From a bacterium (lineage in GTDB: Bacteria; Muiribacteriota; Ozemobacteria; Ozemobacterales; Ozemobacteraceae), in NCBI GenBank assembly GCA_016192885.1, contig JACPTH010000181.1, forward strand, positions 1-36,223: a stretch of DNA of 36,223 nt, written 5' to 3'. The translations under genes and the position numbers were made by a program. Each line of letters opens with the position of its first letter. Position 1 is the first letter of the stretch. The notes under the pieces were generated by a model. The model did no database searches. It saw nothing but the letters and a program-made list of their open reading frames with translations, and was not told where the DNA came from. This document shows, one piece after another, positions 3,648 through 32,360 of this stretch.

Positions 3648-3676
3648 TTGAATTTTTTTTACTTTTGAAGTAATAA
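3648..3676 (+). promoter_or_regulatory. candidate sigma70-type promoter for the 3722-12028 operon
   Basis: TTGAAT (3648-3653), an exact 17-nt T-rich spacer, then TAATAA (3671-3676). It lies about 45 nt upstream of the first ORF. Confidence 0.35.
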
Positions 3677-3721
3677 TCTTTCAAGGTTGTTTTTTACTTA
3701 CTTACGCGATTTTTTTTCTCC

Positions 3722-4318
3722 ATGAAGGAATCATTAATGGATGCAACAGGTGTCGGAAATGAATCCGAAAAAGATTATCAACTTCTGTTTTGGTGTTTAT
3801 TAGTCGTTTTAGAGCTCGGAATAATTGCCCATCTAACCGAATTTAGGCTGGTAATGCTTTTGACCCTCATTCTTTTCCGACCTTTTAAAGCCTCTTTAGG
3901 AATGGAGATTGACCCAAACCCAGAGACCCCTCAGGAGAAAACATCTTCCATGGCTTCCCAGCCTTCTCATACGCTCCACGATTCGGCCATAAATTCCGAA
4001 AAGAGCCATTTTTCGCTTCTTTTCGAAGGCAACTCGAACCCGATTAGCCTTCAACTTGGGCAAAAAATCAAGAGCCCCATAAATAAATCAGGAAGCTTCA
4101 ATGAACAAACCGGTTTTATGGCTGAAGTTACCCACAAACCGGATGACAAATCAGTTTTAGGGTTAAAGAACATTAGCGAGAAAGAGTGGGTTGTCCAACT
4201 TCCCTCTGGAGAATGCCGAGTTTCTCCCCAAAAATCTGTCGCCCTTGCCCCGGAAATGAAAATTGATTTCGGGGATTGTAAGGGGTCGATCCATCCCTCA
4301 ACCGATACCGGAGATTGA
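3722..4318 (+). CDS. hypothetical protein, hydrophobic N-terminus plus beta-rich C-terminal module (operon gene 1)
   Basis: 198-aa ORF. An alternative ATG at 3737 has AAGGA upstream. The stop (4316-4318) lies 2 nt before the next ATG. The C-terminal pattern VLGLKNISEKEWVVQLPSGECRVSPQKSVALAPEMKIDFG suggests a small beta-sandwich or FHA-like binding module, which is unverified. Confidence 0.5.
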   Translation: MKESLMDATGVGNESEKDYQLLFWCLLVVLELGIIAHLTEFRLVMLLTLILFRPFKASLGMEIDPNPETPQEKTSSMASQPSHTLHDSAINSEKSHFSLLFEGNSNPISLQLGQKIKSPINKSGSFNEQTGFMAEVTHKPDDKSVLGLKNISEKEWVVQLPSGECRVSPQKSVALAPEMKIDFGDCKGSIHPSTDTGD

Positions 4319-4320
4319 AT

Positions 4321-7083
4321 ATGGAAAAAATCGAGTTTATTGCCGCAACCGGAATTTCATTCTATTCTCCATCCCAAAACGCCAGAATCCCTGAATCTAT
4401 CTTGGAAAGAAAGCAGAGCTTTCGAATATTAAGAAATGAGAAAGGTCAAATTACGATTCAATTTGGGACAATGCCTTTAGAAAAAGTTGAAAATCCGCCG
4501 GAAAATGGCTTAACCGATATTGGTCAAATTTCAATCAAATTTCAAGACGCTCTAAATGCTTGTTTGCGTAAGTGGATACCTCTTCCCTATGCGAGAAAAA
4601 ACCCCGAACGGTCGACGCCTTCAAAAAGCAATGACTGGATTAGGTTTTGGTTAAGCCGTCCCCCTCTTTCAAATGAAGATACCGCGTTTCGAATTGTTTT
4701 CTCCGTCGATACTTCAATTCAGCCGTTTGTTCCGCAATCAGATCAACCGAAAGATTGTCTCGGTTTTTTTTCCGATGATATAGGCTTTGCTTTCGAACCT
4801 AACATAGGTTCCACAAGCTTTTGGCAATCATCCACTCTTTTTACTTGGATTCAATCAATTTTCAAGCAAGTCCCCACCGAGGGATTTGAAAAAGCTCCTC
4901 CTTCAGCTATCTCCATGGCCGCATTCATGACTTTTGTTGAAGGTTTAAGATCGGCGGATCTTCTTCCGGAAGTCACAATGATGCGCGCGGAAGGGCAACC
5001 AGTTGAAGCGCATCTTATCCTTGATCTTGGAAACAGCCGTGCATGCGGAATTTTAGCGGAATGTGAACCCGGGCAGCCTATCAGCCTCGATGAATGTAAT
5101 AAATTGGAGATTCGTGACTTAAGCCGCCCTACCGAATTATACACGGAGCCGTTCGATACCAGTTTCAAATTCCAACCTCCATTGTTTTTCTCGCCCGATA
5201 ATCCAATTCCTCATGTGGGAACAGGTTTCCGATGGCCAAGCATTGTTAGACTTGGGCAGGAAGCCGCCCAGATGGAACCGGTAGAAATCGGTGAAACCGG
5301 GATGTCCAGCCCCAAACGCTACTTATGGGATGATCGTCAAAAGCCGTACCCATGGTACTTTAATCTTCCGGATGACGGATTAGGAAAGAAAATTTCCGCT
5401 CCATTTCTGAAAAATTTGGATGACAGCGGGAATTTTTTGGGAAATGAAGGGCGTCCGCCGTTTGAACCATGTTACCCCCCAAATTCAATGATGACCTTTC
5501 TAATTTTGGAAATACTAAATCATGCGTACGCGCAAATAAATTCTTATTCATATCGAAAATTTCGAGGAATCAGGCAAGCGAAACGAATTCTGAAAAGCCT
5601 TGTAATTACTACGCCCTGCGCCATGTCCGAGCCTGAGAAACAAATCTATCGTCAAAGAGTACAATCCGCGATTGATATCTATTTTCACTCCTGCAAATTA
5701 CCGGTAGATGGCAAACCTCAGCTTTTTCTCGATTTTGATGAAGCCACCAGCGTTCAACTTACTTATTTGTACGGAGAGGTTAAGCATCGCTTTCTTGGAG
5801 AAACAAAGCACGCCATCTCAACCCTAGGTAAGGAAAGAACCGCATCGAACGGAAACCGCGAAACGAATTTGCGCGTCGCAAGCATCGATATCGGGGGGGG
5901 GACAACCGATTTGATGATAGCGGAATATTATTCTCCGGATCATGGACTATCCGGATTATACCAAAAAATGCTTTTCTCCGAGGGTTTTTCCATCGCGGGT
6001 GACGAGATTGCAAAACGAATAATTGAAAAAATTGTATTAAAAAGAGTCTACGACTTCGCGAAAGAAAAAAATGCCTCATTGGCCTGGGAAGAATTTCAGG
6101 GCTTCTGGGGGCCAAGCAAAGGCGGAAGAGACAAAAAATTCCTGGATGACAAGGCCGAAATTTGTAGGCAAGTTTGGATCCCCATGGCGCATAAACACCT
6201 TGAATTTGCCGAACTTGATCTTGACGAACCCATTCTTGAGTTGACTTTTGATAAATTTTTCCCGCGGCGCCTTCCAGGCGGAAACATCCTGGATTTCTTT
6301 GCGAGACATTTGAAACAGGAGTTCGGATGCGATATTACCCTCACGGAAATTCCATGGGTTCTTTCAAAACGCAAAATCAACGCCGTGGTTTCAAATGTGA
6401 TGGAAAACATTTTGCGAATTTTTTCGGAAGTGATTTCCCAATTCGACTGTGATGTCATTATTCTCGGGGGAAAACCATCTTCCTTGCCCGTTATCAGGGA
6501 ATTATTGGTTCGATTTATGCCCGTTCAGCCTGGTAACATTATTGGGTTGAAGGGTTTTTCCGTAGGAAGCTGGTATCCGTTTTCCCAAAAAGGCGGGGGG
6601 ATTTCCGACCCCAAAACCGCTTGTGTCGTAGGGGCCGCGGTGTGGCTTTTCGCTGAAAAGCTAAACAACTTAGACGGGCTAAGCTTAAAGACCGACCGAT
6701 CTCGAATTGTCGGCCAGGAATGTTTTATCGGCCCGTTTAACCCTGAGGCCATGACCCTAAAACAAAAATTGTTTCCAAACCCCAACAACCAAGAAGTCCC
6801 ATTTTCTCTTACAAAGCCGGTGTTTTTGGGAAGCAGGCGCATTGATTCTGATGTTTGCACAGTAAACCCCGTTTGGGAGTTAAGTTTAGATTTAAAAAAT
6901 CTAAAATCCCAGGGTCCCTTTACGGTTTACCTTAACCAAGACCCGAATTCAAAACAAAAAATTAGCCTATCTCGAATTGAAGACGAAACAAAGCAATCTC
7001 TTGATCTAAAAAAAGCGACATTGCGGCTTCGGTCCATGGTGACAGACCAGTATTGGCTTGATTCGGGCAGTTTTGACCTTTAA
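4321..7083 (+). CDS. SrfB-like large ATPase with Hsp70/actin (ASKHA) fold (operon gene 2)
   Basis: The ORF track starts at TTG 4315. ATG 4321 is the more likely start. ASKHA signatures are phosphate-1 LILDLGNSRACG (5023-5037 = DLGNS), phosphate-2 SIDIGGGTTDLMIAEY (5887-5910) and an adenosine-type motif DVIILGGKPSSLPVIRELL (6451-6507). Its size and its neighbourhood with a SrfC-type P-loop protein fit the SrfB family. Confidence 0.8.
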   Translation: MEKIEFIAATGISFYSPSQNARIPESILERKQSFRILRNEKGQITIQFGTMPLEKVENPPENGLTDIGQISIKFQDALNACLRKWIPLPYARKNPERSTPSKSNDWIRFWLSRPPLSNEDTAFRIVFSVDTSIQPFVPQSDQPKDCLGFFSDDIGFAFEPNIGSTSFWQSSTLFTWIQSIFKQVPTEGFEKAPPSAISMAAFMTFVEGLRSADLLPEVTMMRAEGQPVEAHLILDLGNSRACGILAECEPGQPISLDECNKLEIRDLSRPTELYTEPFDTSFKFQPPLFFSPDNPIPHVGTGFRWPSIVRLGQEAAQMEPVEIGETGMSSPKRYLWDDRQKPYPWYFNLPDDGLGKKISAPFLKNLDDSGNFLGNEGRPPFEPCYPPNSMMTFLILEILNHAYAQINSYSYRKFRGIRQAKRILKSLVITTPCAMSEPEKQIYRQRVQSAIDIYFHSCKLPVDGKPQLFLDFDEATSVQLTYLYGEVKHRFLGETKHAISTLGKERTASNGNRETNLRVASIDIGGGTTDLMIAEYYSPDHGLSGLYQKMLFSEGFSIAGDEIAKRIIEKIVLKRVYDFAKEKNASLAWEEFQGFWGPSKGGRDKKFLDDKAEICRQVWIPMAHKHLEFAELDLDEPILELTFDKFFPRRLPGGNILDFFARHLKQEFGCDITLTEIPWVLSKRKINAVVSNVMENILRIFSEVISQFDCDVIILGGKPSSLPVIRELLVRFMPVQPGNIIGLKGFSVGSWYPFSQKGGGISDPKTACVVGAAVWLFAEKLNNLDGLSLKTDRSRIVGQECFIGPFNPEAMTLKQKLFPNPNNQEVPFSLTKPVFLGSRRIDSDVCTVNPVWELSLDLKNLKSQGPFTVYLNQDPNSKQKISLSRIEDETKQSLDLKKATLRLRSMVTDQYWLDSGSFDL

Positions 7084-7096
7084 GAGGAACTTGAGC

Positions 7097-7918
7097 ATGA
7101 CTGAAAATGAGAACTTTATCAACTTACCCCCATTCAAGGAAAAGAAAGAAGAGAAAAATGCTCAATCAGATTCTTCCGCCCTAATTTGGGACTCCTCCGC
7201 TTCGAAAAGTTGCGCCGGATCCGCGATTCCGACTTCCCTTCCGCCCGCTCAATCTGAAAACCTTGAAAACCAAATCCTATCTTTTGAAGAAATAAAGGAT
7301 TTGAGAATCCTTCTTTCTCATTTCTCAGCCACGATAAAAAATGTTCGCCAAATTTGTAGAGAACAAATTGTTTCAAATGTTGATGTTTCTCAAAAGCCTG
7401 CAGAATCTTCTGTAATTCCGCTTCCCACGCCAAAAATATCTCCAAATTTAAAAGAAGAGCTAATAGCTTTATGGAAGAAGTTTCCGGTAAAACCGTCTGA
7501 AAAAGATTTTGGAGCGAACCTCTTAACCATTTTGAATGGAATTCCGGAAAAGCCGCACTTTTCAAGAATTTTCCACGCAGTTTCATCTGTTTTTCCCATC
7601 CAAAATTTTCTTCGACACGCTACACCGGAACAAAAAGTTTTTACTCTAATCGTTCTCACCGACCGATTTCTTTCACTTTTAACCGAAATACAGTTCGAAG
7701 GTCGCAATACGCTTTTGAAAACCATTTCTCGCTTTTGCTCGGATGTTTCAGAAGGTTACTCCTTTTTTCAGCACGAGGGCGAACCCATCGAAATTCAGTA
7801 TTACGAAAGAGTTGAAGGATCAAATTCATCAAGCCGGGTTATCAAAGAGATGCATGGTTTTGTAGTCATCAACAAAAAGACCGGAAACGTTTTTCGCATG
7901 GGTCGGGCAATGACGTGA
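7097..7918 (+). CDS. hypothetical protein, C-terminal half possibly GrpE-like (operon gene 3)
   Basis: ATG 7097 has AAGAGGA upstream, while the ORF track starts at 7058 inside the previous gene. C-terminal pattern: LIVLTDRFLSLLTE ... EGYSFFQHEGEPIEIQYYERVE ... VIKEMHGFVVINKKTGNVFRMGRAMT. It resembles the GrpE helix plus beta-domain (LLPViDsLdrAl ... Gve.i...G..fDP..H.av ... V..v.qkGY.l..r.lRpA.V.V). Confidence 0.6.
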   Translation: MTENENFINLPPFKEKKEEKNAQSDSSALIWDSSASKSCAGSAIPTSLPPAQSENLENQILSFEEIKDLRILLSHFSATIKNVRQICREQIVSNVDVSQKPAESSVIPLPTPKISPNLKEELIALWKKFPVKPSEKDFGANLLTILNGIPEKPHFSRIFHAVSSVFPIQNFLRHATPEQKVFTLIVLTDRFLSLLTEIQFEGRNTLLKTISRFCSDVSEGYSFFQHEGEPIEIQYYERVEGSNSSSRVIKEMHGFVVINKKTGNVFRMGRAMT

Positions 7919-7925
7919 TTTTTTT

Positions 7926-7957
7926 AGAAGTTAGAAGTTAGAAGATAGAAGATAGAT
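7926..7957 (+). repeat. tandem heptamer repeat (agaagtt x2, agaagat x2, agat) in the gene3-gene4 spacer
   Basis: Read directly: agaagttagaagttagaagatagaagatagat. It fills most of the 44-nt intergenic gap. Confidence 0.8.
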
Positions 7958-7962
7958 TAAAA

Positions 7963-9531
7963 ATGAAAATAATTGGAACTACGTTTACCAAGGGGTATAA
8001 GCCCGCGATTTTTCACAATTCCCCGATTCATAGTTTTTTTGAAAATTTGCAAGCCGTTTTGCGATCGATTGATAAAACTGGCGGATTAGACCATCTTTTC
8101 GCGAAGCCCTATTTTGAAGGTGGAGACCTCAGCCAAGCTTCAGAAATAAAATGGATGAGCGAACTTTCCGGCGAACCATCCTCATTTTCTCAGCTTCCAA
8201 AGCCGACCCAGAAGGTTGTGGGCGAAGCCCTGGCGAGGAGTTTGGAAGGCATTCGAGAATACGGTCGCAGTTTTGAAGATTCTTCAGGCTTGGAAAAACA
8301 GTACGCCGATTTCCTAAAAGCGATTTCAATTTCTCCTGAAATGCAGCATGTTATTGTTATCAACGAGAAAATACCTGTTCTTGTTCACTGGGGTTTCATC
8401 CGCGAGGAAACGAATCCCAACCTTGCTCTTTTCGTGGGTTGGACCGACATGATTGCTCAACTGAAACCCAAGAGTCCCGATGCTGAAAAAAAACCTGCGA
8501 TACAAGGCGAAACAAATCCGGTAAATGAAAAGAAAAACGCCGCTCAACCCGAACCTGAGAAAAAAGCCCCGACTTCAGAGCAAACACCAAAGGAAAGCCT
8601 CGAAAAGCAACCCCCATCAAAGGAAAAAGTTCCTCCCATTCAACCCGAGCCTACTCCCGTAAAGAAAAGGTCATCTACAAAAAAATACGGATGGGTAAAG
8701 TGGTTGGCAATCCTTTTGGCGATTATTATTGTACTTCTTCTCCTTTTAAGGAAGTTAAGACCCCCTCCCTTAGTTATTCCATCAAACAAGCAACCTTCAC
8801 AGCCATCTTTAACCGGAGGAAATTCTTCCGGCCAACCTCCGTCGTCGTTGGTAGGCGCTGGTGGTGGTGGTTCAGGTGGCGGGGGCGGCGGGTCAGGCTC
8901 CGGCGGCGCGGGGTCTGCTGGAAGTGCCGGTTCCGGCGCAGGCGGTTCAGGGTCAGGCTCCGGCGGTTCAGGGTCGAACTCCGGGGCTGGAGCCGGCAAC
9001 GGGGGGGCGTCAGGCGGGCAGCAAGGCGGGTTCCCTTCCGCTCAACCTTCTAACGGAGTTGGGGGCGGAAACGCTTCTTCGCCTAATTCGGTAGCCCCAT
9101 CTAGTAATGCTTCACAATCCGCTCAAACTCCGAAACATCCTAAAGTACCAATAAAAAAAACGACCCAACCGAAAGTTTCTAATCCAAATCAAAATCACCA
9201 AACAAAGAAACCTCCAGTTCCAAAGACCCCTCCAGCTCAACCTTTGTTGATTTCCCTGGAAGTCGTCGGAACAAAGGACCAAACCCTAATTTCCTCCCCC
9301 CCCGATCCGGGGACGCAATGGAAACTAGTTCCCGACAAAGGCGGCGCATTTGACCCTGCTTTGGCGTATTTTTTAAATTCGGGTCAAAGAAACCAGGCGC
9401 GGGGTCCCAAAGTTACTCTTCACTTGATTCCGGCATCCAAGGAATATTCGGTAAAAGTTGTGGCCAAGGGTACAACCGGAATCCAAACCACCTACCATTT
9501 CAAGGTCAAATCCGGAAAGAGTGAACCGTAA
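7963..9531 (+). CDS. single-pass membrane protein: cytoplasmic N-domain, Lys/Pro/Glu linker, TM, Gly/Ser-rich spacer, Pro/Gln/Lys tract, C-terminal beta-domain (operon gene 4)
   Basis: 522-aa ORF. The TM segment is WLAILLAIIIVLLLLL (about 8692-8754). Low-complexity GGGGSGGGGGGSGSGGAGSAGSAGSGAGGSGSGSGGSGSNSGAGAGNGGASGG follows it. The C-terminal about 90 aa is rich in alternating beta-type residues (LISLEVVGTKDQ ... YHFKVKSGK). Confidence 0.75.
   Translation: MKIIGTTFTKGYKPAIFHNSPIHSFFENLQAVLRSIDKTGGLDHLFAKPYFEGGDLSQASEIKWMSELSGEPSSFSQLPKPTQKVVGEALARSLEGIREYGRSFEDSSGLEKQYADFLKAISISPEMQHVIVINEKIPVLVHWGFIREETNPNLALFVGWTDMIAQLKPKSPDAEKKPAIQGETNPVNEKKNAAQPEPEKKAPTSEQTPKESLEKQPPSKEKVPPIQPEPTPVKKRSSTKKYGWVKWLAILLAIIIVLLLLLRKLRPPPLVIPSNKQPSQPSLTGGNSSGQPPSSLVGAGGGGSGGGGGGSGSGGAGSAGSAGSGAGGSGSGSGGSGSNSGAGAGNGGASGGQQGGFPSAQPSNGVGGGNASSPNSVAPSSNASQSAQTPKHPKVPIKKTTQPKVSNPNQNHQTKKPPVPKTPPAQPLLISLEVVGTKDQTLISSPPDPGTQWKLVPDKGGAFDPALAYFLNSGQRNQARGPKVTLHLIPASKEYSVKVVAKGTTGIQTTYHFKVKSGKSEP
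8851..9030 (+). repeat. G+C-rich low-complexity coding tract (Gly/Ser/Ala repeats) inside gene 4
   Basis: Imperfect repeats such as gggtcaggctccggcgg occur twice. The local G+C is far above the flanks, which produces long spurious ORFs in other frames and on the other strand. Confidence 0.8.
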
Positions 9532-9544
9532 GGGAGAATTATTG

Positions 9545-12028
9545 ATGGAAGCCGACATTCTAAAACCCAACGAGCAAAAAGTAGTTGAAATGGCAAGAGG
9601 GTTGGAAGACATTCTTCAACAAAGTCTTGGCTGGGCTCAAACACACCTTAAGCAACCCCAAGTTCAGTCTTTTATTCTAAAAACTTTGCAACAAAAAAAG
9701 GGCACCGCGAAAAAAATCCTTGATTCAGCCTATAGGCCTATCGCCCTGGGCGTTTTTGGGTCGAGTCAATGCGGAAAGTCATATCTCGTATCCGAATTAA
9801 TTAAGGGTGACCAAAAGGCGCTTGAGATTTACATTAGCGGGAAGAATGGAACGCCGGTTTTAAAGGATTATTTGGAGACAATAAATCCTGCCGGCGGAAG
9901 AGAAAGCACCGCGCTAATTACGCGTTTCACTAAACGCCCATACGCCGAAGTTCGCGGGTGTTCCATACACGCTCGGCTTATCAGTCGCACAGATATTATT
10001 AAAATTCTCTTAAACGGGTTTCTTTTCGAATGCGTGTCCGATTTCACCCCCTCCGCGGATGATCTTCTTAAGCTGAAAAATTCCTTTCGAGGAATTCCTC
10101 GTGACCCCGTTCCCGTATTTAGCGCTGATGATATTTGGGACATCCAAGATTATGCCAAGCGCCACTTTCGCAACCAGTTTTTAAAAATGCTTGAAGATAT
10201 AAATTATAAATTGACCGAGTTGTATAGGTCACTGCATAAGGCTTTGGGAGACCTTGGAGACCAGGTGGTCGGGCTTTATGACGAATCCCTTGTCCCTCGG
10301 GAAAAAAGCATCATTGATATTGAACGTTTATATTCCCTAGGGAAACCTGGAAACCGAAAGTGCGCGGTAGTTCCAGCGAGCGGGGGAGCCGTAGAATTTG
10401 ATACTTCGTTTTTGTGCGCTCTCACCCGAGAGCTAATTTTAAAAGTTCCCCAGGAAGTAACGAATTCCTTGCTTGACCAAATGGACGTCCTTGATTTTCC
10501 CGGGGCACGCTCGCGAGAACAAGTTTTTGACCAAAGTAAACTTGCTTCAGACCCCTTGGCGTTATCGGAGGTTTTTAAACGCGGGAAAGTCGCGTACTTG
10601 TTCGACCGGTCTTCCGACGACCGCGATATAACGGGGTTGGTTCTTTGCCAGGAAGGAGGTCCCCAAGAAGCTAAATCCCTTCCGTACATGATTAACAAAT
10701 GGATTGAATGGAGCCATGGACCGAATCCAAAATCCCGCCAAGGAAAACCGCTTCTTCTTTTTCACGTTTTTACCAAATTCGATCTCGACCTTATCTGGAA
10801 AAAGGGGGAAGACCAGAACGTTCGTTGGGAAAGCAGGTTAAAAAGTAACTTTGAAGAGTTTTTTGGAAGAGCGGGCGATTGGGTCGTAAATTGGGATGAG
10901 ACCGGCGCTTTTCGAAATTGTTTTTGGGTGAGAAATCCGAACGTTCAGCAAACCGTTTTTGGTCGCAAGGACGGGTTGGAATTTATTAGGGAAGAAACTC
11001 AATTGGCCGAAACGAAAGCGCAATATTGCCGCCATGAACTTGTTCGAAAACATTTCCGGAATCCGGAAGAAGCCTGGGACGAAGCCGCTAGCCCTAACCA
11101 TGCCGGGATTCCTTATCTTAAAGATCGAATTAGAAAGACTATTGAGCCGAACTCTAAGGTCATTCAACTTGGAAGCAATATTCAAGCAATTCTTCATGAT
11201 GTTAAAACGCATCTAAAGCCTTATCACGTGGGTGACGACGTTAGTCAAGCGCGTTTGGCCGCGGAAGAGAGAGCTAAGAAACGCCTTTCCGCCTTGATGA
11301 AGGCGATGCCGACCAGATATTCTCTCGCATTTATGCTTGACCACGAGCGATTCGCGATATCCGAAAAAACGGTCGCGATGATTTACGATTCCATCGTAAA
11401 CCCGATGATTGACGAGAAAAGCGACGATGAGAAAGATTCAAGTTCACTTTCCATTGAATCTCCTCGTTTTGATGAAAGTATTTTTGAGATTCCCGGAGTC
11501 GAAACACAAAAAGAGCCTGAAAAAGTTGCTAAGCCTCCAATGAAGAAGGGGGATTTGTTCGCAAAAGCCGTAATAGACCGTTGGCACGAGCAGTTAATTC
11601 AAATGACCGCCGATCTGGAATTCCAAAGGGAAATCGAGCTTGATTCAGAATGGTTAACCGATATTACCCAGGAGTTAATGAAGGGGGCTTCAAGGTTTTC
11701 CTTGTACGAAAAGATATCAGAAGACAGCGATAAAAGACTAAATTCCCCGGCTTCAACAAAATTAATGCGAATGCAGTCGGCTTCGACCGCTGCGCTTTTG
11801 AACCGATTTGTAACTGAATTGGGCCAGGCAAGAAAAGAAATCCAGATTCCAAAAGGCCCTCCGAAAGCCAACCTTTCGGCAAAATCATATCCCGGACTTG
11901 CGATTTACCAGCATTGGACGATGTCGCTAATAAAGCTCTTCAAGGATAATATCGCCGAAGGCGACAAGATAGATGAGGAAAGCAATTCAAAACTAAAGCG
12001 CATTTTAGATTTTTCCATTCAGTCATAG
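9545..12028 (+). CDS. SrfC-like large P-loop GTPase with dynamin-style G motifs (operon gene 5)
   Basis: ATG 9545 has AAGGGAGA upstream, while the ORF track start 9458 overlaps gene 4. G1 is GVFGSSQCGKS (9749-9781). G3 is DVLDFPGARS (10484-10513; compare dynamin DLPG). G4 is TKFD (10772-10783; compare dynamin TKLD). It is followed by a long helical C-terminal region. Confidence 0.8.
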   Translation: MEADILKPNEQKVVEMARGLEDILQQSLGWAQTHLKQPQVQSFILKTLQQKKGTAKKILDSAYRPIALGVFGSSQCGKSYLVSELIKGDQKALEIYISGKNGTPVLKDYLETINPAGGRESTALITRFTKRPYAEVRGCSIHARLISRTDIIKILLNGFLFECVSDFTPSADDLLKLKNSFRGIPRDPVPVFSADDIWDIQDYAKRHFRNQFLKMLEDINYKLTELYRSLHKALGDLGDQVVGLYDESLVPREKSIIDIERLYSLGKPGNRKCAVVPASGGAVEFDTSFLCALTRELILKVPQEVTNSLLDQMDVLDFPGARSREQVFDQSKLASDPLALSEVFKRGKVAYLFDRSSDDRDITGLVLCQEGGPQEAKSLPYMINKWIEWSHGPNPKSRQGKPLLLFHVFTKFDLDLIWKKGEDQNVRWESRLKSNFEEFFGRAGDWVVNWDETGAFRNCFWVRNPNVQQTVFGRKDGLEFIREETQLAETKAQYCRHELVRKHFRNPEEAWDEAASPNHAGIPYLKDRIRKTIEPNSKVIQLGSNIQAILHDVKTHLKPYHVGDDVSQARLAAEERAKKRLSALMKAMPTRYSLAFMLDHERFAISEKTVAMIYDSIVNPMIDEKSDDEKDSSSLSIESPRFDESIFEIPGVETQKEPEKVAKPPMKKGDLFAKAVIDRWHEQLIQMTADLEFQREIELDSEWLTDITQELMKGASRFSLYEKISEDSDKRLNSPASTKLMRMQSASTAALLNRFVTELGQARKEIQIPKGPPKANLSAKSYPGLAIYQHWTMSLIKLFKDNIAEGDKIDEESNSKLKRILDFSIQS

Positions 12029-17080: not shown

Positions 17081-17620
17081 CTATTCGTCAACTACCACCG
17101 CGGTTGCCAAATAACGTCGATACTCCGCAGGAGTCAAAACAATCTCCGGATATTCGTTACTGACCCAAAAGCGTTTTCCATCGGGTGCGGTATTCCATTC
17201 CCCATCCAATAGATCTACCTCTCGCCCGCCAATGTTGGCGATTTTCTTTTTCCCTTTTATTCCTTCGGAACGGCTTGAAAAAGCCTTTCGCAGAGAATCT
17301 AAAGTTCCGTTGAGGTCATTTCGACTTTCTTGAACCACTTTAAACTGTATACGGTTGATCAGTCGATTTAAAAGCCCCGTTTCCAGCCTTGTAGCGACTT
17401 CCGAAAGCCCTGGAAGACCATCCTGGGAAGTTAAAACACTATTGAAAAGGGATTCTTCATAAACCAGCAGGTCATTTTCCCGTGATTGGTTCGGTTCAAG
17501 AAGAAAATTTTTTTCATAGGTGTTGCTTAAGGAAAGCAACTCAGTTGCCAAATCTAGCCCTAAACCAGGAAAGGCAATTAGCAAGTTTAAAAGAACCAAA
17601 AGATAAAAAGAAAGTCTCAT
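17081..17620 (-). CDS. hypothetical secreted protein
   Basis: 179-aa ORF with an N-terminal signal-like segment MRLSFYLLVLLNLLIAFPGLG. No family was recognised. Confidence 0.5.
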   Translation of the reverse strand: MRLSFYLLVLLNLLIAFPGLGLDLATELLSLSNTYEKNFLLEPNQSRENDLLVYEESLFNSVLTSQDGLPGLSEVATRLETGLLNRLINRIQFKVVQESRNDLNGTLDSLRKAFSSRSEGIKGKKKIANIGGREVDLLDGEWNTAPDGKRFWVSNEYPEIVLTPAEYRRYLATAVVVDE

Positions 17621-21184: not shown

Positions 21185-22906
21185 ATGCTCCGGCTTTTTT
21201 GGGGTGTCTTGTTTTTTCTTTTGGGGTTTCTCATGCTTTCCTGGCTCCCACTTTGGGCTTGTCCACATGGACCTCAGTCCCCCGCAGATTGTTTATTCTG
21301 CAAAAAAGGATTCAAGGAACTGTGCCCTCATGGGTTTGTCCTTCCTGGGGCGTATAGCACTCCTTCCCCAAAATGTCCAACATGCAATCCCCCAATCAAC
21401 CAAAAGAAAAAGAAAAACCGGCTAGATCAAATCGAAGAAGCTCAAAGTGCCGCGGATAAAGGCGGGAGCGCTGCGATCGGGAGCAAATGCCCGATTCATC
21501 CGAGCGCATACGTTCCCTCATGTCGAACCTGCAACCCAAAAGGTTTGAACCAGGGAAACGCAAAAGCTCCCAGCACAACAGGATCCCCGAAATCTCAATC
21601 CTCCAGGCAACCCTCAAATACGCGAAAAGAGGGATACCTTTCAAACCGGCAAGGAAAAGTTCCTTCCCGCGATAGTTCCCTCCCCGAAAGGGAATATACG
21701 CCGGAGGAAAAGAAAAACCTCTTGCAAGCAGCGGGGGTCATGGGGGGGCTGGGGCTCCTCCTTGGCCTTGCATGGTGGTTTGGAAGCGGGAAGCCCAAAG
21801 TCGGCGGGTCCTCGATTGGAGAATCCGAGAAAAATTCGGTTTTTTCAGGGGATGCCGCTTCAAGTTCCCCCGTAAGCGTGGAAGAAAGAATCGATGGCGT
21901 TCCCACAGAAAGCTCTCAAGTGGGAGATACTAGATTCGATGTTGATGAGAGCGGACACAAATGGGAAATGGTTTACGATGGAAGCCGGTGGATAGATCGC
22001 GACAGCTACACGGAAAAACAAAGAACCGCTGCGGAGAACGAAACTTTCCAGAATCAGCAAGCGGAGAACCTCAGGACTCATAACACCGAGTTTGACCGTA
22101 ACCTGGAACAACGTCGTGAAAATCTTAAGGATGACTTGAGGGAGATTCACGACCGGAACGTAAAAGAACATCGCGATTTCGTTGAGGTAATTCAGGAAAT
22201 CAACCAGTCGGACAAAGCCCGTGCGGACAACGCTACCCAAACATGGGAAGCTCGGGTTAAATTCGCCGAAAATATGAAAGCGGGAGTCGAAAGCGTCGCT
22301 CTTCCCCTTATCGGCGCCGCGACTGGAGGAATCGGAGGTTTTGCGGTTCAGACTGCATACACATTCGGGTCTGAAATCGTTGGAGGAGCAACAGAAGGAA
22401 TCGTAGGGTCATCCTCGCTTCAGGAGGCGGTCACCGAAGGTTTAAAGGGCGCGGGCATAGGGGCTTTAAAGGGAGGAGTTAACTTTCTTGTCGGTGAAGG
22501 AATGAATGCGGCGGGAGCGGTTGTCTCAAAAGGCGTTAGAAGCGTTCTTCACTCGATTCCCTTGCGAACATCGGGTACGATAGTTCCCCCCTCGCCAATT
22601 TTTAATGAATCACTTCCGGTAACCGATCTGAAGAAAGTTTGGGGAAATTTAAAATCCGGAAATCCCCTAATGAGGGGCGTAGATCAGGGTATGTCGAAAG
22701 TTTCGATTTCACGCGTGTTTGATGTCCTGACCGGGAGTGAAACGCCTTCCCGGGGAGCTTTTAGAACTGAAACGGCTTTTCGGAAAGCAATGGAAAACTT
22801 TAATCTCCTTAAGTCTTCCGCAAGAAATAACCCCGTTAGAGGTCAACTGATCGATTCGAAAATTGGAAATTTCGTTAATGACGAAATCTTTGGAGGAAGG
22901 GACTGA
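21185..22906 (+). CDS. hypothetical membrane protein: signal/lipobox-like N-terminus, duplicated Cys motif, TM, coiled coil, glycine-zipper-like region
   Basis: 573-aa ORF. The N-terminus is LSWLPLWAC. A duplicated motif reads KCPTCNPPINQ / SCRTCNPKGLNQ. The TM segment is GVMGGLGLLLGLAWWF. A charged heptad-like segment (about 22010-22260) follows. The Gly-rich hydrophobic segment is LPLIGAATGGIGGFAV...GGATEGIVG...GAGIGALKGGVNFLVGEGMNAAGAV. Confidence 0.7.
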   Translation: MLRLFWGVLFFLLGFLMLSWLPLWACPHGPQSPADCLFCKKGFKELCPHGFVLPGAYSTPSPKCPTCNPPINQKKKKNRLDQIEEAQSAADKGGSAAIGSKCPIHPSAYVPSCRTCNPKGLNQGNAKAPSTTGSPKSQSSRQPSNTRKEGYLSNRQGKVPSRDSSLPEREYTPEEKKNLLQAAGVMGGLGLLLGLAWWFGSGKPKVGGSSIGESEKNSVFSGDAASSSPVSVEERIDGVPTESSQVGDTRFDVDESGHKWEMVYDGSRWIDRDSYTEKQRTAAENETFQNQQAENLRTHNTEFDRNLEQRRENLKDDLREIHDRNVKEHRDFVEVIQEINQSDKARADNATQTWEARVKFAENMKAGVESVALPLIGAATGGIGGFAVQTAYTFGSEIVGGATEGIVGSSSLQEAVTEGLKGAGIGALKGGVNFLVGEGMNAAGAVVSKGVRSVLHSIPLRTSGTIVPPSPIFNESLPVTDLKKVWGNLKSGNPLMRGVDQGMSKVSISRVFDVLTGSETPSRGAFRTETAFRKAMENFNLLKSSARNNPVRGQLIDSKIGNFVNDEIFGGRD

Positions 22907-22908
22907 AC

Positions 22909-24072
22909 ATGGCCGGCAAGAAATCAACGGAAATATTTATTCCGTCGACTTTGGTCGGGCATCTTTTCCGCTTTCTCCGGGAACCGCCGGATAACTTGTA
23001 CCCATTTCCAATTAATGACAAAAGCCCTTCCGATGCGGAAACTCGGGAGTTACTGGAGAATGGGATTTTAGACAAAACCGGAAACCTTGCCAATGATCCC
23101 CAAAAACTTTTGGCCATTATGGGGAAAGCTCGTTCCATGGCACGTTTCAAGTTCCTGGCAGAGGGGGATCTGATGGAGTATCGGGTGTTTTTCGGCAAAA
23201 ATACCGGAGCTTCCGCCTCCCTAAGACAGAATGCCAAAGGATTTTTGCTTGATTCGCCCGCCCCTTCCAGGGAACTCCTTGAGGCGATCACGGATTTCTC
23301 CGGTTCCGGGATGTCCGGGGTAGTGCCTCCCCTGGGGGAAATGCCCATTTCCGTGGCTTTATGCGCACTTTCCGCGGCCGATCTTACCCGCCGGGAGCTT
23401 CTTCTTGCGCTTGGTTCGGATTCACCATGGAAACCATCCGGATTGACCCCCGAGAAGATCCTTACGCTTCTGAAACGGGATGATTTGAATTCCGGCTGGC
23501 TGCTATGGCTCCTGAAAACCGTTTTGTGGCACGAACTTTCCGCGGACCAAAGGAGCGTCGATACGGCTTTCGCCGACCTTTCGCGGATGGGATTTCTTGA
23601 AAAGCGCAATGGCGAGTATGTTCCCGGGAACCAACTTCTTGTTCTTTGCCGAAGAATGATGATCCTGAACTTTTTTTACAGGATAGATGCGGTCCGGCTT
23701 GCAGGCAATGGCGATGCTATCAGGCAGGCGTTTACGGTGGTTCAAAACGGAAACCGGGACATTCTGTACCTCGAAGCCACTGAAACAACAGTTTTTATGA
23801 CCGGCCTTTCCGGAAGGGCGCTTATGTCCCTGCTGGAAAATTATCTGACGAATCCTGAGGCGATACCCGCGAGGGAACCTTTAACCGAGGGAAAAAGCGC
23901 ATCTTCCTGCTCAAAATGCGGGAAACCCTTGGAAACAGATGCGGGTTTCTGTAAATTCTGTGGAGCCTCCCAAAGGAAGGATGACGAAAAACCCCGGTTC
24001 TGTTCCGGGTGCGGAGCGAACCTCAAGCCCGAGAAATCTTTCTGCAGCAAATGCGGCAAACCGGTTTCCTGA
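22909..24072 (+). CDS. hypothetical protein with C-terminal double zinc ribbon
   Basis: The ATG is 2 nt after the previous stop. C-terminus: CSKCGKPLETDAGFCKFCGA ... FCSGCGANLKPEKSFCSKCGKP (two CxxC...CxxC ribbons). The N-terminal about 320 aa is unrecognised. Confidence 0.75.
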   Translation: MAGKKSTEIFIPSTLVGHLFRFLREPPDNLYPFPINDKSPSDAETRELLENGILDKTGNLANDPQKLLAIMGKARSMARFKFLAEGDLMEYRVFFGKNTGASASLRQNAKGFLLDSPAPSRELLEAITDFSGSGMSGVVPPLGEMPISVALCALSAADLTRRELLLALGSDSPWKPSGLTPEKILTLLKRDDLNSGWLLWLLKTVLWHELSADQRSVDTAFADLSRMGFLEKRNGEYVPGNQLLVLCRRMMILNFFYRIDAVRLAGNGDAIRQAFTVVQNGNRDILYLEATETTVFMTGLSGRALMSLLENYLTNPEAIPAREPLTEGKSASSCSKCGKPLETDAGFCKFCGASQRKDDEKPRFCSGCGANLKPEKSFCSKCGKPVS

Positions 24073-24100
24073 ACCTAGGATTATCTGGATGATACGAATT

Positions 24101-24844
24101 TTACCAGATAACCAATTCGGATTCTTCGAAATCGGAAAGAGTAGATCCCATTTTATACGATGAAGGGTTATTCGGATTTCGGCGGCCGCTAAGGAAAAAT
24201 CCCAGGATCAGAAACAGCTTCCAGAACTGTCGGGATATGCAGAACCAGAAGGTCGGAGGACTGCCGTATTCGTCCGCCACCCGCAATCCGAGGGCAAGCC
24301 CCCCAAGAGTGGCTCCAAGAAACCATTCTTGGAGGGAATAATATAGGACAAAAGCAGATAAGGCCCATACCCATGCAAGAATTCCTGTTGCGGCGTCATT
24401 TTTCTCCAAATTGGCAACGGTCATTAATGCCGGACCCACGGTGTGAATCGCGGTTACGATAATAACAAGCAATACCGGAAGGTCAAAAGCAAGAGTCAGG
24501 AAATGCCGGAAAAAACCCGGCTTCTGAATTCCCCAGTCCCGGGGTTTTGAAGTCAATCGCGCGTGAACCGGACCAGGAGGGTTTTTGGCTAACATTTCTT
24601 CGCGAAGAGGCAGGGGGTTGGCCATAAGATTAACAATCTCGTCGTATTTTTCTCGGGAAACTGGTTTACGAGTACGTCGCTTGGCGCCTGTTTCCACAGT
24701 TTTCTCGGATTTCCCCTCATCGGTTTCACCATCGGTCGGGGATTCTTGCGATACTTTTTGGGAGGTTTTCTCCAAAGATTTTCCACAACCGGCGCAAAAT
24801 TGATCCCCGCGCTCAAACTTCTCTCCACAGGAGGGGCAAGACAC
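24101..24844 (-). CDS. zinc-ribbon plus RDD-domain membrane protein
   Basis: GTG start. N-terminal CPSCGEKFERGDQFCAGCG is followed by a charged linker. The C-terminal polytopic region contains LGLRVADEYGSPPTFWFCISRQF, typical of RDD family proteins. Confidence 0.78.
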   Translation of the reverse strand: MSCPSCGEKFERGDQFCAGCGKSLEKTSQKVSQESPTDGETDEGKSEKTVETGAKRRTRKPVSREKYDEIVNLMANPLPLREEMLAKNPPGPVHARLTSKPRDWGIQKPGFFRHFLTLAFDLPVLLVIIVTAIHTVGPALMTVANLEKNDAATGILAWVWALSAFVLYYSLQEWFLGATLGGLALGLRVADEYGSPPTFWFCISRQFWKLFLILGFFLSGRRNPNNPSSYKMGSTLSDFEESELVIW

Positions 24845-26272: not shown

Positions 26273-27148
26273 ATGAAAAGTGGAATTGTTTTAGTTGTTT
26301 CCGCGAGCCTTTCGAACGATGACCTATGTTCTTCTCCTTTCAATTTGCACCCCGAAGAATTTTTTCTTGCGAGTTATGATTCGTTGTGTTTCCTAGGGTT
26401 CTCACGGTTTTGTTTGGTTATCCTTCACGAGCCCGACCCTGATATTTGCACAAAACTTTCGTTGGGAATTCGGGATTCAAGACTTCTTGAAGGCATGTGG
26501 AACTTGGTTGCTCTTTCCAATTCACCCGTGCGAATTATTTCTTCGCCTAAAAACCGTCCTTTAAAATCTTTGCTTGACCTAGGCGTTGAGCCATTTTCTC
26601 CGTCAGAAGTTCGGGATTTTTTATCATCTCTTTCGTCCCCAAAAAATTCCGCTTCGTTTAACCCAAAAAAGCAACCCTTGCTTACCGCTGACGATATCCG
26701 TGAAATGCACAAAATGGGAAAACTGCGATTAGAACCAGGGGCTCTCCTTACCGAATGGGCAAAAGAGGTTGCAGTTACCTTAGGAATTAGTTTGCCTGAA
26801 AAGCAAGCCAATTTTGTTCTGGCTTTTTTGAGCACTCCTACCCGTGCTTCCCTGATAGATTTATCGGAAAAAATTCACTCTTGGAGTCGCGCGAATCCAA
26901 AACTCCTTTTTGTGGTTCCATCCCCACAAATTCCCCTTTTTCGTGAACTTTTTCCGTCAATTTCTTCGCGCCTAGTGGCCCCCGCCTTTCATTGGGCGGA
27001 ATCCGGAGCCTTTACCGGAGAGGTTTCGCTTGGAATGATTCAAGATGCGGGGTGTTTTGGAGCAATTATGCCGCATTCCAAGCCTTTTTTTACAAAAGAG
27101 CAGATTCTCCAAATTGCGTCGCATTGGAGCATTCTCATCGATAATTAA
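26273..27148 (+). CDS. BMC-locus protein: unrecognised N-terminal region, EutQ-N-terminus-like motif, partial triosephosphate-isomerase-like segment
   Basis: C-terminus: LLFVVPSPQIPLF...LVAPAFHWAESGAFTGEVSLGMIQDAGCFGAIMPHSKPFFTKEQ. It aligns by eye with TIM residues about 35-120 (vaiaPP...lGAQNv....SGAFTGEtS..ML.D.G..yviiGHSERR). Residues about 134-175 (LLTADDIREMHKMGKLRLEPGALLTEWAKEVAVTLGISL) resemble the EutQ N-terminal module. Confidence 0.6.
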   Translation: MKSGIVLVVSASLSNDDLCSSPFNLHPEEFFLASYDSLCFLGFSRFCLVILHEPDPDICTKLSLGIRDSRLLEGMWNLVALSNSPVRIISSPKNRPLKSLLDLGVEPFSPSEVRDFLSSLSSPKNSASFNPKKQPLLTADDIREMHKMGKLRLEPGALLTEWAKEVAVTLGISLPEKQANFVLAFLSTPTRASLIDLSEKIHSWSRANPKLLFVVPSPQIPLFRELFPSISSRLVAPAFHWAESGAFTGEVSLGMIQDAGCFGAIMPHSKPFFTKEQILQIASHWSILIDN

Positions 27149-27255
27149 GCTCATAGACCTTCGGAATTCGAGCGCGTTCTCGGTCGGTGATAGAGAAGCG
27201 GTTTTTGTTTCAATTGATGACGTTGAGAAGGGGAGAGTTTCAGGATGGCTGAACG

Positions 27256-27900
27256 ATGATTGATGAAAATACTGTAAAAGTCATAGTAGCCCAAGTAATA
27301 GAGCAAATAGCTTTAAAGGAGCGTGCTCGTTCGGGGGCTGTAACGGTTGGGATAAGCAATAGGCATATCCACCTTTGCGAAGCTGATTTAGAGTCCCTTT
27401 TCGGCACTGGGCATAAGTTGAAAACCTTTAGAGAGCTTTCACAACCGGGCCAATTTGCCGCCGAGGAATGCCTTACCGTCGCGGGGCCTAAGGGCGTTAT
27501 CGAAAAAGTTCGAATCCTTGGGCCAATCCGAAAGCAAACCCAGGTGGAAATCTCGATTACAGACTCCTTTTCGTTGGGAATTCCTCCTATTGTTCGCGAT
27601 TCCGGAGATGTTAAAGGAACTCCGGGATGCGTTCTTATCGGCCCCAAAGGTGCGGTAAATCTTAAGGAAGGCCTTATTGTTGCTTCCCGTCATATCCACC
27701 TTAATTCGAAGGATGCCGAAAAGTTTGGTTTGAAAGATATGGATCGAGTATCGGTGAAGAGTTTTGGGTCGAGGTCCCTGATTTTCAATAATGTTCTTGT
27801 CCGAGTCAGCGATCAGTTTGCCTTAGACTTTCACCTAGATTGCGATGAAGCCAACGCAGCATGTTTGAGGAACGGCGACAAACTTGAAATTATTGGTTAA
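27256..27900 (+). CDS. pduL: phosphate acyltransferase PduL
   Basis: Motifs: VGISNRHIHLCEADLESLFG, QPGQFAAEE, VRILGPIRKQTQVEIS, ASRHIHLNSKDAEKFG, VLVRVSDQFALDFHLDCDEANAA. The amphipathic N-terminus ENTVKVIVAQVIEQI looks like an encapsulation peptide. Confidence 0.93.
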   Translation: MIDENTVKVIVAQVIEQIALKERARSGAVTVGISNRHIHLCEADLESLFGTGHKLKTFRELSQPGQFAAEECLTVAGPKGVIEKVRILGPIRKQTQVEISITDSFSLGIPPIVRDSGDVKGTPGCVLIGPKGAVNLKEGLIVASRHIHLNSKDAEKFGLKDMDRVSVKSFGSRSLIFNNVLVRVSDQFALDFHLDCDEANAACLRNGDKLEIIG

Positions 27901-27951
27901 TTCAGAAAATGAATTGTTTATTTTTAGAATTTATCTTCTTAGGAGGTTTTC

Positions 27952-28257
27952 ATGCAAGAGGCTCTCGGAATGATTGAGACAAAAGGTTTGGTGGCAATGA
28001 TTGAAGCAAGCGACGCGATGGTAAAGGCGGCCAATGTGCGATTGGTCGGTTGGGAAAAAATCGGGTCGGGATTTGTCACGGCAATAGTTCGCGGGGATGT
28101 CGCCGCGGTAAAAGCCGCTACTGATGCCGGCGCGGCTGCCGCAAAAAAAATCGGAGAATTAGTATGCGTCCATGTAATTCCGCGCCCGCACACAAATCTC
28201 GACGAAGTTCTTCCGATTCGCGAAAACACAACCTCAACCAGTACGACTAAAAAATAA
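27952..28257 (+). CDS. BMC-H shell protein (PduA/EutM-type hexamer)
   Basis: [27 protein letters not shown]...[24 protein letters not shown]...[17 protein letters not shown]. Confidence 0.96.
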
Positions 28258-28274
28258 GCCTTTCGGAATTCTAG

Positions 28275-28547
28275 ATGATTCTTGGGAAAACTTGCGGAAC
28301 TGTTGTTTGTACCCGTAAAGATGAAAGACTTAACGGGATGAAATTTTTAATTGTCGAAGAATTAGCGGTAAATACTCAAAAACCAACCGGGAACCATCAT
28401 ATCGCGGTTGATGCCGTCGGCGCCGGAGCATCCGAGACGATTTTGATGGTTTCCGGAAGTTCCGCGCGCCTTACAGGCCGAACAATAAATTGTCCTGTCG
28501 ATGCCGCAATTTGCGGAATCGTTGATGAAATTACCATGGACAAGTAA
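28275..28547 (+). CDS. BMC-P vertex protein (EutN/CcmL/PduN family)
   Basis: MILGKTCGTVVCTRKDERLNGMKFLIVEEL...AVDAVGAGASETILMVSGSSAR. Confidence 0.93.
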   Translation: MILGKTCGTVVCTRKDERLNGMKFLIVEELAVNTQKPTGNHHIAVDAVGAGASETILMVSGSSARLTGRTINCPVDAAICGIVDEITMDK

Positions 28548-28674
28548 AAAGGAATTTGCGAACGGAGAGAAAGCTCTTCAAAGTTTGATCTTTCTCGAAT
28601 AATAAATGAATAGCGCGAATTGCCGGCATGGTAAAAGTTGATTCATTTTTTTCTTGAACGGGAGATAAGCGGAT

Positions 28675-31270: not shown

Positions 31271-31275
31271 GCAGA

Positions 31276-32315: not shown

Positions 32316-32360
32316 AAGTTAAGGTTAGCAAATTAGAAAAATTGCCCTGAGGAAATTATT

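Follow-up and report, generated by a model that had tools for sequence, protein, structure and literature searches.

A rearranged srfABC-type operon with a GrpE-like component in a contig of the Ozemobacteraceae

Main findings

We analyzed a cluster of five genes on contig JACPTH010000181.1 (GenBank assembly GCA_016192885.1), from a bacterium of the family Ozemobacteraceae. The complete contig of 36,223 bp is the stretch of DNA that we call the window. The five open reading frames (ORFs), g1 to g5, lie on the + strand within positions 3722-12028, and the operon belongs to the known srfABC family. Its gene order, the outer domain of its SrfA, an added membrane-hairpin protein, and a GrpE-like component are new. 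By sequence comparison, this GrpE-like component, which is unannotated, defines a multi-phylum clade of SrfBC systems. We consider it probable that the operon encodes a membrane-anchored, cytoplasmic remodelling machine with two NTPases, in which g3 would be the nucleotide-exchange factor for SrfB.

The five genes are:
3722-4318, + strand: g1, 198 aa, small membrane protein (alternative in-frame ATG at 3737)
4321-7083, + strand: g2, 920 aa, SrfB
7097-7918, + strand: g3, 273 aa, GrpE-like protein
7963-9531, + strand: g4, 522 aa, divergent SrfA
9545-12028, + strand: g5, 827 aa, SrfC

The srfABC genes have been labelled a 'virulence factor' operon since 2000. In the window, the gaps from g1 to g5 are 2, 13, 44, and 13 nt when ATG starts are used, so the coordinates reproduce the packed, same-strand arrangement that an earlier note on this DNA had described. 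We take the five ORFs as real genes and not chance ORFs, because g2 and g5 match Pfam families and homologues in the same order are found in related loci.

The GrpE-like protein g3

The protein encoded directly downstream of SrfB is annotated at NCBI as 'hypothetical protein HYY75_04895'. Its predicted architecture begins with a disordered N-terminal region containing short motifs of hydrophobic residues and proline, followed by a long helix (residues 63-89), then a bundle of helices (118-218), and finally a beta domain of six strands (221-272). Hydropathy gave no transmembrane segment or signal peptide. The AlphaFold2 model had a predicted local distance difference test score (pLDDT) >93 for residues 118-273, and its bundle is intramolecular and monomer-like, compared with the dimeric four-helix bundle of GrpE. 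When this model was searched with Foldseek against the Protein Data Bank (PDB), the top 10 matches were all GrpE, from six species, with a probability of ~0.9.

Profile-profile comparison pointed in the same direction. Against a GrpE profile of nine species (E. coli plus plasmid-borne grpE genes), the broad g3 family reached 93% in hhalign (P=3.4e-7) and the distant g3 members alone 90% (P=1.5e-6), while the controls against g3 (reversed GrpE and two SrfA-N alignments) gave P=0.1-0.9. The firmness of this signal comes from pooling g3 with its distant relatives. The GrpE-homologous core covers about residues 165-273 (nt 7589-7915), and the aligned part is the GrpE beta domain, including the segment G-E-x-F-D-P-x-x-H-x-A. 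When all PDB sequences were searched with a g3 hidden Markov model (HMM), the top match was Thermus thermophilus GrpE (E=0.018) at the EGE-FDP-xxHEAV motif. A 15-sequence Riflebacteria g3 profile retrieved no GrpE from the PDB, and g3 profiles aligned to the single E. coli GrpE sequence with hhalign were not significant (E=0.41 and 0.05). The idea that g3 is a duplicated SrfA-N domain was ruled out (P=0.3-0.9).

Thus, the suggestion that gene 3 may be GrpE-like is supported by both the structure matches and the profile comparison. Taking this evidence as a whole, we regard the homology of the C-terminal domain of g3 to GrpE as established, and from the analogy with GrpE we infer that g3 would act as an exchange factor.

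A search with the single g3 sequence found one homologue, and a search with an alignment as the query found 106 proteins. All 106 are 'hypothetical' and have no Pfam domain. Those with a name come nearly all from Riflebacteria; the exceptions are entries named 'bacterium' or 'uncultured bacterium' and one 'Erysipelotrichia' metagenome-assembled genome (MAG).

The Riflebacteria homologues share two conserved motifs, NELFPFP and LPAFP, in the disordered N-terminus (alignment columns 1-60). In the window these motifs are degenerate (7097-7300), with NFINLPPF in their place. The N-terminal motifs could be docking or pseudo-substrate peptides, a role also suggested for the tail at the N-terminus of E. 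coli GrpE.

SrfB and its ATPase motifs

The earlier note expected gene 2 to fall into the SrfB family, and g2 matched Pfam SrfB (PF07520) with E=4.7e-147 and 492 bits (cutoff 27), over profile positions 66-991 of 992. It carries the following ASKHA motifs:
5014-5055, + strand: phosphate-1 motif, LILDLGNSR
5878-5919, + strand: phosphate-2 motif, IDIGGGTTD
6451-6489, + strand: adenosine motif, D711...GGKPS

The ASKHA residues D235-G237-N238, D523-IGGGT-D530, and G717 are invariant among 19 SrfB proteins of 25-61% identity, and so are the family forms of the motifs (DxGNS, DIGGGTxD, and GGxxS/P). In hhalign the SrfB motifs are colinear and in register with those of the DnaK nucleotide-binding domain. 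The alignments with DnaK plus HscC gave P=7e-4 and 4e-3, against P=0.06 for the reversed control. Sub-threshold Pfam matches of g2 to FtsA and EutA fall on the phosphate-2 motif. Sequence searches of the PDB with g2 and g5 returned no matches, and hydropathy found no transmembrane segment or signal peptide in g2. The conserved motif set shows g2 to be an ASKHA-fold (Hsp70/actin-type) ATPase, predicted to be cytoplasmic.

SrfC as a dynamin-superfamily GTPase

For gene 5 a SrfC-type family had been foreseen, and g5 matched Pfam SrfC (PF10139, Virul_Fac) with E=4.8e-140 and 469 bits (cutoff 28). The remainder of its Pfam scan gave a sub-threshold AAA_14 match and no dynamin-type model. Its GTPase motifs are:
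9755-9781, + strand: G1, GSSQCGKS (G72, S74, Q75, G77, K78, and S79)
10484-10504, + strand: G3, DVLDFPG (DFPG at residues 317-320)
10772-10783, + strand: G4, TKFD (residues 410-413)

Among 85 SrfC sequences, G1, G3, and D413 are invariant, and T410, K411, and F412 are conserved in at least 90%. The AlphaFold2 model built from the 85-sequence alignment had a pLDDT of 86.9 and a predicted TM-score (pTM) of 0.84. In Foldseek against the PDB, its top 28 matches were all of the dynamin superfamily, nine of them at E<=1e-3. The best was the BDLP of Nostoc (2j69, E=3.3e-7), and the others included Drp1, the Campylobacter DLP pair, Fzo1, MFN1/2, LeoA, OPA1, MxA, and dynamin 1. The TM-scores were low (0.14-0.45) owing to a different domain arrangement, and the dynamin ranking was unambiguous. 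G2 and G3 are separated by a large insertion, and the C-terminus forms a helical stalk. The hhalign comparison of SrfC with E. coli RdcA/CrfC was weak (P=0.026), with G4 misplaced; the structure search decided the assignment.

The dynamin likeness that had been read from DFPG and TKFD therefore holds both for the motifs and for the predicted fold. According to the model, g5 is a cytoplasmic BDLP/mitofusin-type GTPase of the dynamin superfamily, with predicted activity. Hydropathy detected no transmembrane segment, signal peptide, or other hydrophobic segment in g5, so membrane contact of SrfC would be indirect, via SrfA.

A divergent SrfA and a shared N-terminal domain

Together with g1 and g3, g4 had been counted as an accessory protein outside any named family. 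This was wrong for g4. It matched the NCBIfam SrfA_fam model with E=2e-9; the score of 37 bits falls short of the curated cutoff (150). The g4 profile match had E=3e-63. Aligning the N-terminal 185 residues of the g4 family with five N-domains of SrfA from Proteobacteria gave 98% in hhalign (E=6.4e-14). Since the N-domain of g4 is homologous to SrfA-N, the module is a rearranged srfABC operon, and not SrfB and SrfC plus three unknowns. The parts of g4 are:
7963-8511, + strand: SrfA-N domain, residues 1-183, predicted to be cytoplasmic
8683-8778, + strand: single transmembrane helix by hydropathy, residues ~241-272
9238-9528, + strand: C-terminal beta-rich domain of ~97 aa, residues ~426-522

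A linker rich in P, K, and E precedes the helix, and a low-complexity stretch rich in G and S follows it. The single hydrophobic helix bears out the view of g4 as a single-pass membrane protein, and its sequence places it as a distant SrfA member. SrfA proteins are described as having a cytoplasmic N-domain, a linker, one transmembrane helix, and an outer domain, and the canonical SrfA-C is lipocalin-like, with an FLNGxW motif and four cysteines (bioRxiv 10.64898/2026.09.18.752743). The C-domain of g4 has no cysteines and is common only to one other locus (L005). It is not detectably a divergent lipocalin-like SrfA-C, the comparison with SrfA-C of Klebsiella and Rahnella giving P=0.66 in hhalign. 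Most Riflebacteria SrfA-like proteins (L001-L017) carry a zinc-ribbon-like CPxCGH motif in a G-rich outer tail; the window g4 lacks this motif and has the beta-rich end domain instead.

In SrfBC loci, the SrfA-N profile also matched further bitopic proteins at their N-termini (E 1e-6 to 1e-23). One transmembrane helix follows SrfA-N in nearly every such protein; a simple hydropathy scan missed one. The domain heads S8 peptidases (Runella, Cereibacter, L029, and L040), a peptidase-vWA protein, several hypotheticals, and a 'tellurite resistance domain' protein in Klebsiella. The following SrfA-N-headed proteins stand beside SrfB/SrfC:
L018, 14951-17548
L020, 2759-5741
L022, 4127-5272
L023, 2955-5483
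L029, 227-3052
L040, 2056-4599
L040, 4625-6058

The same N-domain on such varied bitopic proteins suggests that SrfA-N may be a shared cytoplasmic handle on membrane proteins with different outer domains.

The small membrane protein g1

By hydropathy, g1 contains a two-helix membrane hairpin (residues 18-61, nt 3773-3904). The hairpin is homologous to an ORF of 60-75 aa located directly upstream of SrfB in Riflebacteria-type loci; in BLAST and profile searches this small ORF scored E 1e-24 to 1e-39 in 16 relatives, and the window g1 scored 1e-27. A C-terminal extension of ~113 aa (nt 3977-4315) is specific to the window. This tail had no Pfam match at E<=10 and no homologue in any fetched locus. 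A likeness of the tail to FHA domains, seen by eye, was dropped for want of a Pfam match even at that threshold. The description of gene 1 as a small membrane protein thus stands, while the beta-rich module assigned to it is not a conserved part, the relatives being hairpin only.

Conservation of the module

In a pattern scan that took one genome for each GTDB species, we found 16 loci, to which we added one locus from a Logan assembly. The 16 loci come nearly all from Candidatus Riflebacteria or Ozemobacteraceae, with SrfB identities of 57-64%. Every sufficiently long Riflebacteria-type locus keeps the order small membrane protein, SrfB, GrpE-like protein, SrfA, and SrfC. All five genes were detected in order in 11 of the 17 loci; in the other six, the contig ends too early or the homologue of g1 or SrfA showed up only in later profile searches. 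The five genes are thus confirmed, by sequence conservation, as a real operon that is strictly co-inherited, and the co-occurrence in related genomes on which the earlier note had staked its proposal was found. Flanks are not syntenic between the window and the Riflebacteria loci, which share one unrelated dehydroquinase, so the module has been passed on or relocated as one unit.

Searching exhaustively with the g3 profile in HMMER returned 74 representatives, ~35 of them distant (E 1e-11 to 1e-3). These distant relatives have long coiled coils before the conserved C-domain. Their genes directly follow SrfB in all six informative contigs, with SrfC downstream and SrfA-N proteins adjacent. The GrpE-like-bearing loci of other uncultivated bacteria are L027, L029, L030, and L040-L042, one of them from a Nitrospirae MAG (YQR-1). 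SrfB identity to the window g2 is 29-34% in these loci, compared with 25-28% in six plasmid-borne loci of Proteobacteria or Bacteroidota (Rahnella, Klebsiella, Gluconobacter, Rhizobium, Cereibacter, and Runella), and no g3-like gene was found in any of the six plasmid-borne loci. The five proteobacterial plasmid loci have a SrfA-like gene followed by SrfB and SrfC, and in four of them SrfC is followed by a Sel1 or hypothetical gene. In three of these four, vWA and ABC-transporter genes come next; the fourth (L021) has hypotheticals only.

In all 16 loci with upstream sequence, a Sel1-repeat protein (365-415 aa, repeats C-terminal) is encoded just before the small membrane protein gene, for instance at 5862-6956 of L001. 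It is absent from the window. Since proteobacterial loci likewise have Sel1 or hypothetical genes after srfC, this protein may be a sixth component.

Two of the related loci are interrupted. In L030 (9209-12656) an insertion sequence (DDE_Tnp_1) splits the SrfA-like gene, and in the Nitrospirae locus L040 (10005-12786) a stop codon breaks SrfC into pieces of 510 and 391 aa. We also observed natural fusions (P0235, P0247, and P0282) of SrfC with SrfB, as one protein of 1292 aa, and of SrfC with TerD (PF02342), of ~1110 aa. These fusions support the view that SrfB and SrfC are physically coupled, as well as a connection with Ter-type stress systems. Overall, srfABC-type proteins comprise well over a thousand protein clusters.

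Proposed mechanism and alternative explanations

In Xenorhabdus stockiae, SrfA, SrfB, and SrfC co-immunoprecipitate as a heteromeric complex (PMC6950479), and an AlphaFold 3 model seats SrfB and SrfC on SrfA-N (bioRxiv 10.64898/2026.09.18.752743). By analogy with these homologues, the window proteins would assemble physically on the cytoplasmic face of the membrane, with the SrfA-N domain of SrfA, a putative bitopic protein of the inner membrane, as the docking platform. SrfB would go through an Hsp70-like ATP cycle, and g3 would reset it by nucleotide exchange, as GrpE does with DnaK. SrfC would provide GTP-driven membrane tethering or remodelling. The lineage-variable extracytoplasmic domain of SrfA would serve as a sensor or effector that couples the machine to the envelope. 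The output would likely be a local remodelling of the envelope or membrane, for instance in forming vesicles, repairing the membrane, or handling SrfA-type membrane proteins.

Several results weigh against this reading, both on the side of g3 and on that of SrfB. The Foldseek scores of g3 were modest (E 3.6e-3 to 0.6, TM-scores 0.2-0.37), and the Riflebacteria-only g3 profile reached 51% and P=1.6e-4 against GrpE. The Pfam GrpE model (PF01025) was matched neither by g3 at E<=0.1 nor by 15 homologues at E<=10. Compared with the PDB, the SrfB profile gave only non-significant ASKHA matches. The Hsp70-specific similarity of SrfB, as opposed to a generic ASKHA one, is weak at the sequence level. 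Thus, of the Hsp70/actin-fold ATPase proposed for gene 2, the ASKHA motif set stands and the Hsp70 type specifically is weakly supported by the statistics; we use the label 'Hsp70-like' because of this weak similarity together with the nature of the partner g3. DnaJ-type Pfam or NCBIfam matches were absent from the five operon proteins. Finally, the lack of a g3-like gene in the six plasmid loci implies that help from an exchange factor is not universal. Weighing these points, we still favor the membrane-anchored two-NTPase machine.

A bolder version, which we put forward as a speculation with the odds clearly against it, is that SrfB, the GrpE-like factor, and SrfC form a prokaryotic Hsp70-dynamin machine acting on SrfA-N-tagged bitopic proteins. 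SrfA-N would then be a handle by which such proteins are extracted, clustered, or budded off, for example into vesicles, and this part of the idea is just as tentative. The machine would be a bacterial counterpart of eukaryotic Hsc70/dynamin vesicle traffic. If true, it would account for the very different phenotypes reported for srfABC (toxin, swarming, and stress).

The GrpE-derived fold of g3 might instead serve as a structural adaptor that bridges SrfB to SrfA/SrfC or gates clients, which we judge unlikely; the other parts of the favored reading would be unaffected. The sequence similarity of g3 to GrpE lies mainly in the C-terminal beta domain, the modelled bundle is that of a monomer and not the dimeric four-helix form, the conserved NELFPFP and LPAFP segments resemble docking peptides, and canonical SrfABC loci manage without g3. 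However, the GrpE beta domain is not known to have any role besides binding of the Hsp70 nucleotide-binding domain, as in the DnaK-GrpE structures (1DKG). Moreover, g3 is always encoded directly after the ASKHA ATPase, and not after SrfA or SrfC.

We hold it to be similarly improbable that the operon is a conflict or defence system, in which SrfA-type proteins would sense envelope attack and the NTPases would trigger effectors or membrane repair. Other SrfBC loci would fit such a role, with SrfA-N heading S8 peptidase, vWA, and TerD-type bitopic proteins, a CHAT/TPR protein near the locus in L040, and SrfC-TerD fusions. On plasmid pSP2_1 of Runella sp. SP2 (L018, 1-17548), the cluster of SrfB, SrfC, and S8 peptidase comes directly after BREX-1 (PglZ, BrxL) and a restriction endonuclease, possibly a defence-island setting. 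The relocation of the module as a unit, without flank synteny, would also suit a defence system, and the bacterial dynamin DynA contributes to phage resistance. However, PADLOC-DB v2 gave 0 matches for all five proteins at E<=0.1, and the neighbors in the window are housekeeping genes, with no peptidase, vWA, CHAT, or nuclease effector among them. The 57-64% identity over 16 Riflebacteria-type loci and a metagenome contig, with >100 protein clusters, points to a lineage-wide function and not to a patchy island.

A secreted tripartite toxin, for instance vesicle-borne and killing eukaryotic cells, is very improbable here: although Xenorhabdus SrfABC produced in E. coli is cytotoxic and insecticidal, with all three proteins needed for full activity (PMC6950479), and export by way of outer-membrane vesicles has been argued for in a preprint (10.64898/2026.09.18.752743), the host is environmental with no sign of animal association (its relatives being Riflebacteria and other environmental MAGs), the proteins have no signal peptides and SrfA is membrane-anchored, g4 lacks the lipocalin-like four-cysteine SrfA-C, the window lacks the accompanying Lol-like ABC and vWA genes, and two NTPases with a dedicated exchange factor of GrpE type would imply repeated nucleotide cycling in the nucleotide-rich cytoplasm of the producer, not a one-shot toxin.

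The two-NTPase machine turns a vague 'virulence' label into a testable model, in which a membrane-anchored Hsp70-type ATPase cycle would be coupled to a dynamin-type GTPase. The GrpE-like partner offers a direct experimental handle on it and argues for a machine that works within the producing cell. Moreover, SrfC of this operon, taken as the representative of its family, models as a BDLP/mitofusin-like dynamin, and the srfABC module is present in free-living non-proteobacterial lineages amid housekeeping genes.

Expression signals and neighboring genes

One promoter-like site is located upstream of g1:
3648-3677, + strand: hexamer pair TTGAAT-18-AATAAT, 9/12 match to the consensus

The region holds eight 9/12 promoter-type sites, against 11.2 +/- 3.4 in shuffled sequence. 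Because such sites are rarer than in the shuffles, we do not count this one as evidence, and the 'plausible promoter' of the earlier note is not above chance. The terminator scan of the region gave no signal above chance. Shine-Dalgarno-like sequences precede g2, g3, and g5. The g1 start at 3722 has none, and the in-frame ATG at 3737 is preceded by AAGGA; judging by this sequence, translation of g1 may start at 3737.

The neighbor annotation agrees with the housekeeping surroundings that had been described. The neighbors are ornithine carbamoyltransferase, a VTT/DedA protein, a PhnD-type binding protein, and tgt, and further ones are a TPR protein, a Wzy_C protein, dehydroquinase II, and a radical SAM enzyme.

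Other parts of the window are:
26273-33512, + strand: downstream locus of bacterial microcompartment type
21185-24844: three genes without an assigned role
33803-36140, 2016-2495, and 17081-17620, all - strand: four ORFs of 159-510 aa with no Pfam match at E<=1e-5

The microcompartment-type locus encodes a phosphate propanoyltransferase (PTAC), an aldehyde dehydrogenase, an RnfC/Nuo51-like iron-sulfur flavoprotein, a tandem-BMC shell protein, RpiB, a phosphopentomutase-like metalloenzyme, and a partial TIM-like ORF. The three genes at 21185-24844 are a 573-aa ORF without a Pfam family, which matches the g3 profile weakly (E=0.001), a 387-aa protein that ends in double zinc ribbons, and, encoded on the other strand, an RDD-family membrane protein.

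Comparison with known systems

The statement that SrfB and SrfC have no established biochemical function needs a correction in part. Besides complex formation and cytotoxicity in Xenorhabdus (PMC6950479), Salmonella mutants in srfB, srfC, or the whole operon swarm poorly (PMC4219756). In the literature on SrfB with Hsp70, dynamin, or defence, with vWA, or with the Pfam accessions, only the Xenorhabdus, Salmonella motility, and kinase-like-domain papers were relevant. We found no paper on an SrfB-GrpE link or on this clade in an incomplete search of the literature, so an earlier description is possible.

One of the closest known systems is srfABC itself (Salmonella, Xenorhabdus, Klebsiella, and other Proteobacteria; NF040486), which has the same core of a protein with SrfA-N and a transmembrane helix, the SrfB ATPase, and the SrfC GTPase. 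Both the proteobacterial operons and the window have these genes in one tight cluster on one strand. However, the window has the order B-X-A-C (g1-srfB-g3-srfA-srfC) instead of A-B-C, adds the GrpE-like gene and the small membrane protein, and has a SrfA outer domain unrelated to the lipocalin-like SrfA-C. The Sel1 or hypothetical, vWA, and Lol-like ABC genes that come after srfC in four of the five proteobacterial plasmid loci are not found in it. SrfB identity is only 25-28%, and the host belongs to a non-proteobacterial environmental lineage.

The SrfB-g3 pair resembles DnaK-GrpE in combining an ASKHA ATPase with a partner predicted to consist of one long helix, a bundle of helices, and a beta domain of six strands, the last being homologous to that of GrpE. 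Unlike DnaK, SrfB is a 920-aa protein with large insertions, and no substrate-binding domain of Hsp70 type could be demonstrated in it. Furthermore, the operon has no J-protein, g3 fails the Pfam GrpE model, and the pair is linked with a dynamin-like GTPase and a membrane anchor.

With bacterial dynamins (Nostoc BDLP, Campylobacter DLP1/2, LeoA, and DynA) and mitofusins, g5 shares the predicted fold and the G1, G3, and G4 motifs, TKxD of dynamin type among them. It differs in having no Pfam Dynamin_N match, a very large G2-G3 insertion, and no hydrophobic paddle or transmembrane segment of its own, and SrfC is always paired with SrfB.

Finally, the loci of other bacteria that carry a GrpE-like gene (the Nitrospirae MAG YQR-1 among them) resemble the window in having this gene after SrfB, with SrfA-N proteins and SrfC adjacent. 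They differ in that their GrpE-like proteins have long coiled coils and are only 12-23% identical to g3, several of the loci add SrfA-N-headed S8 peptidase or vWA proteins, and none has the small two-helix protein g1.

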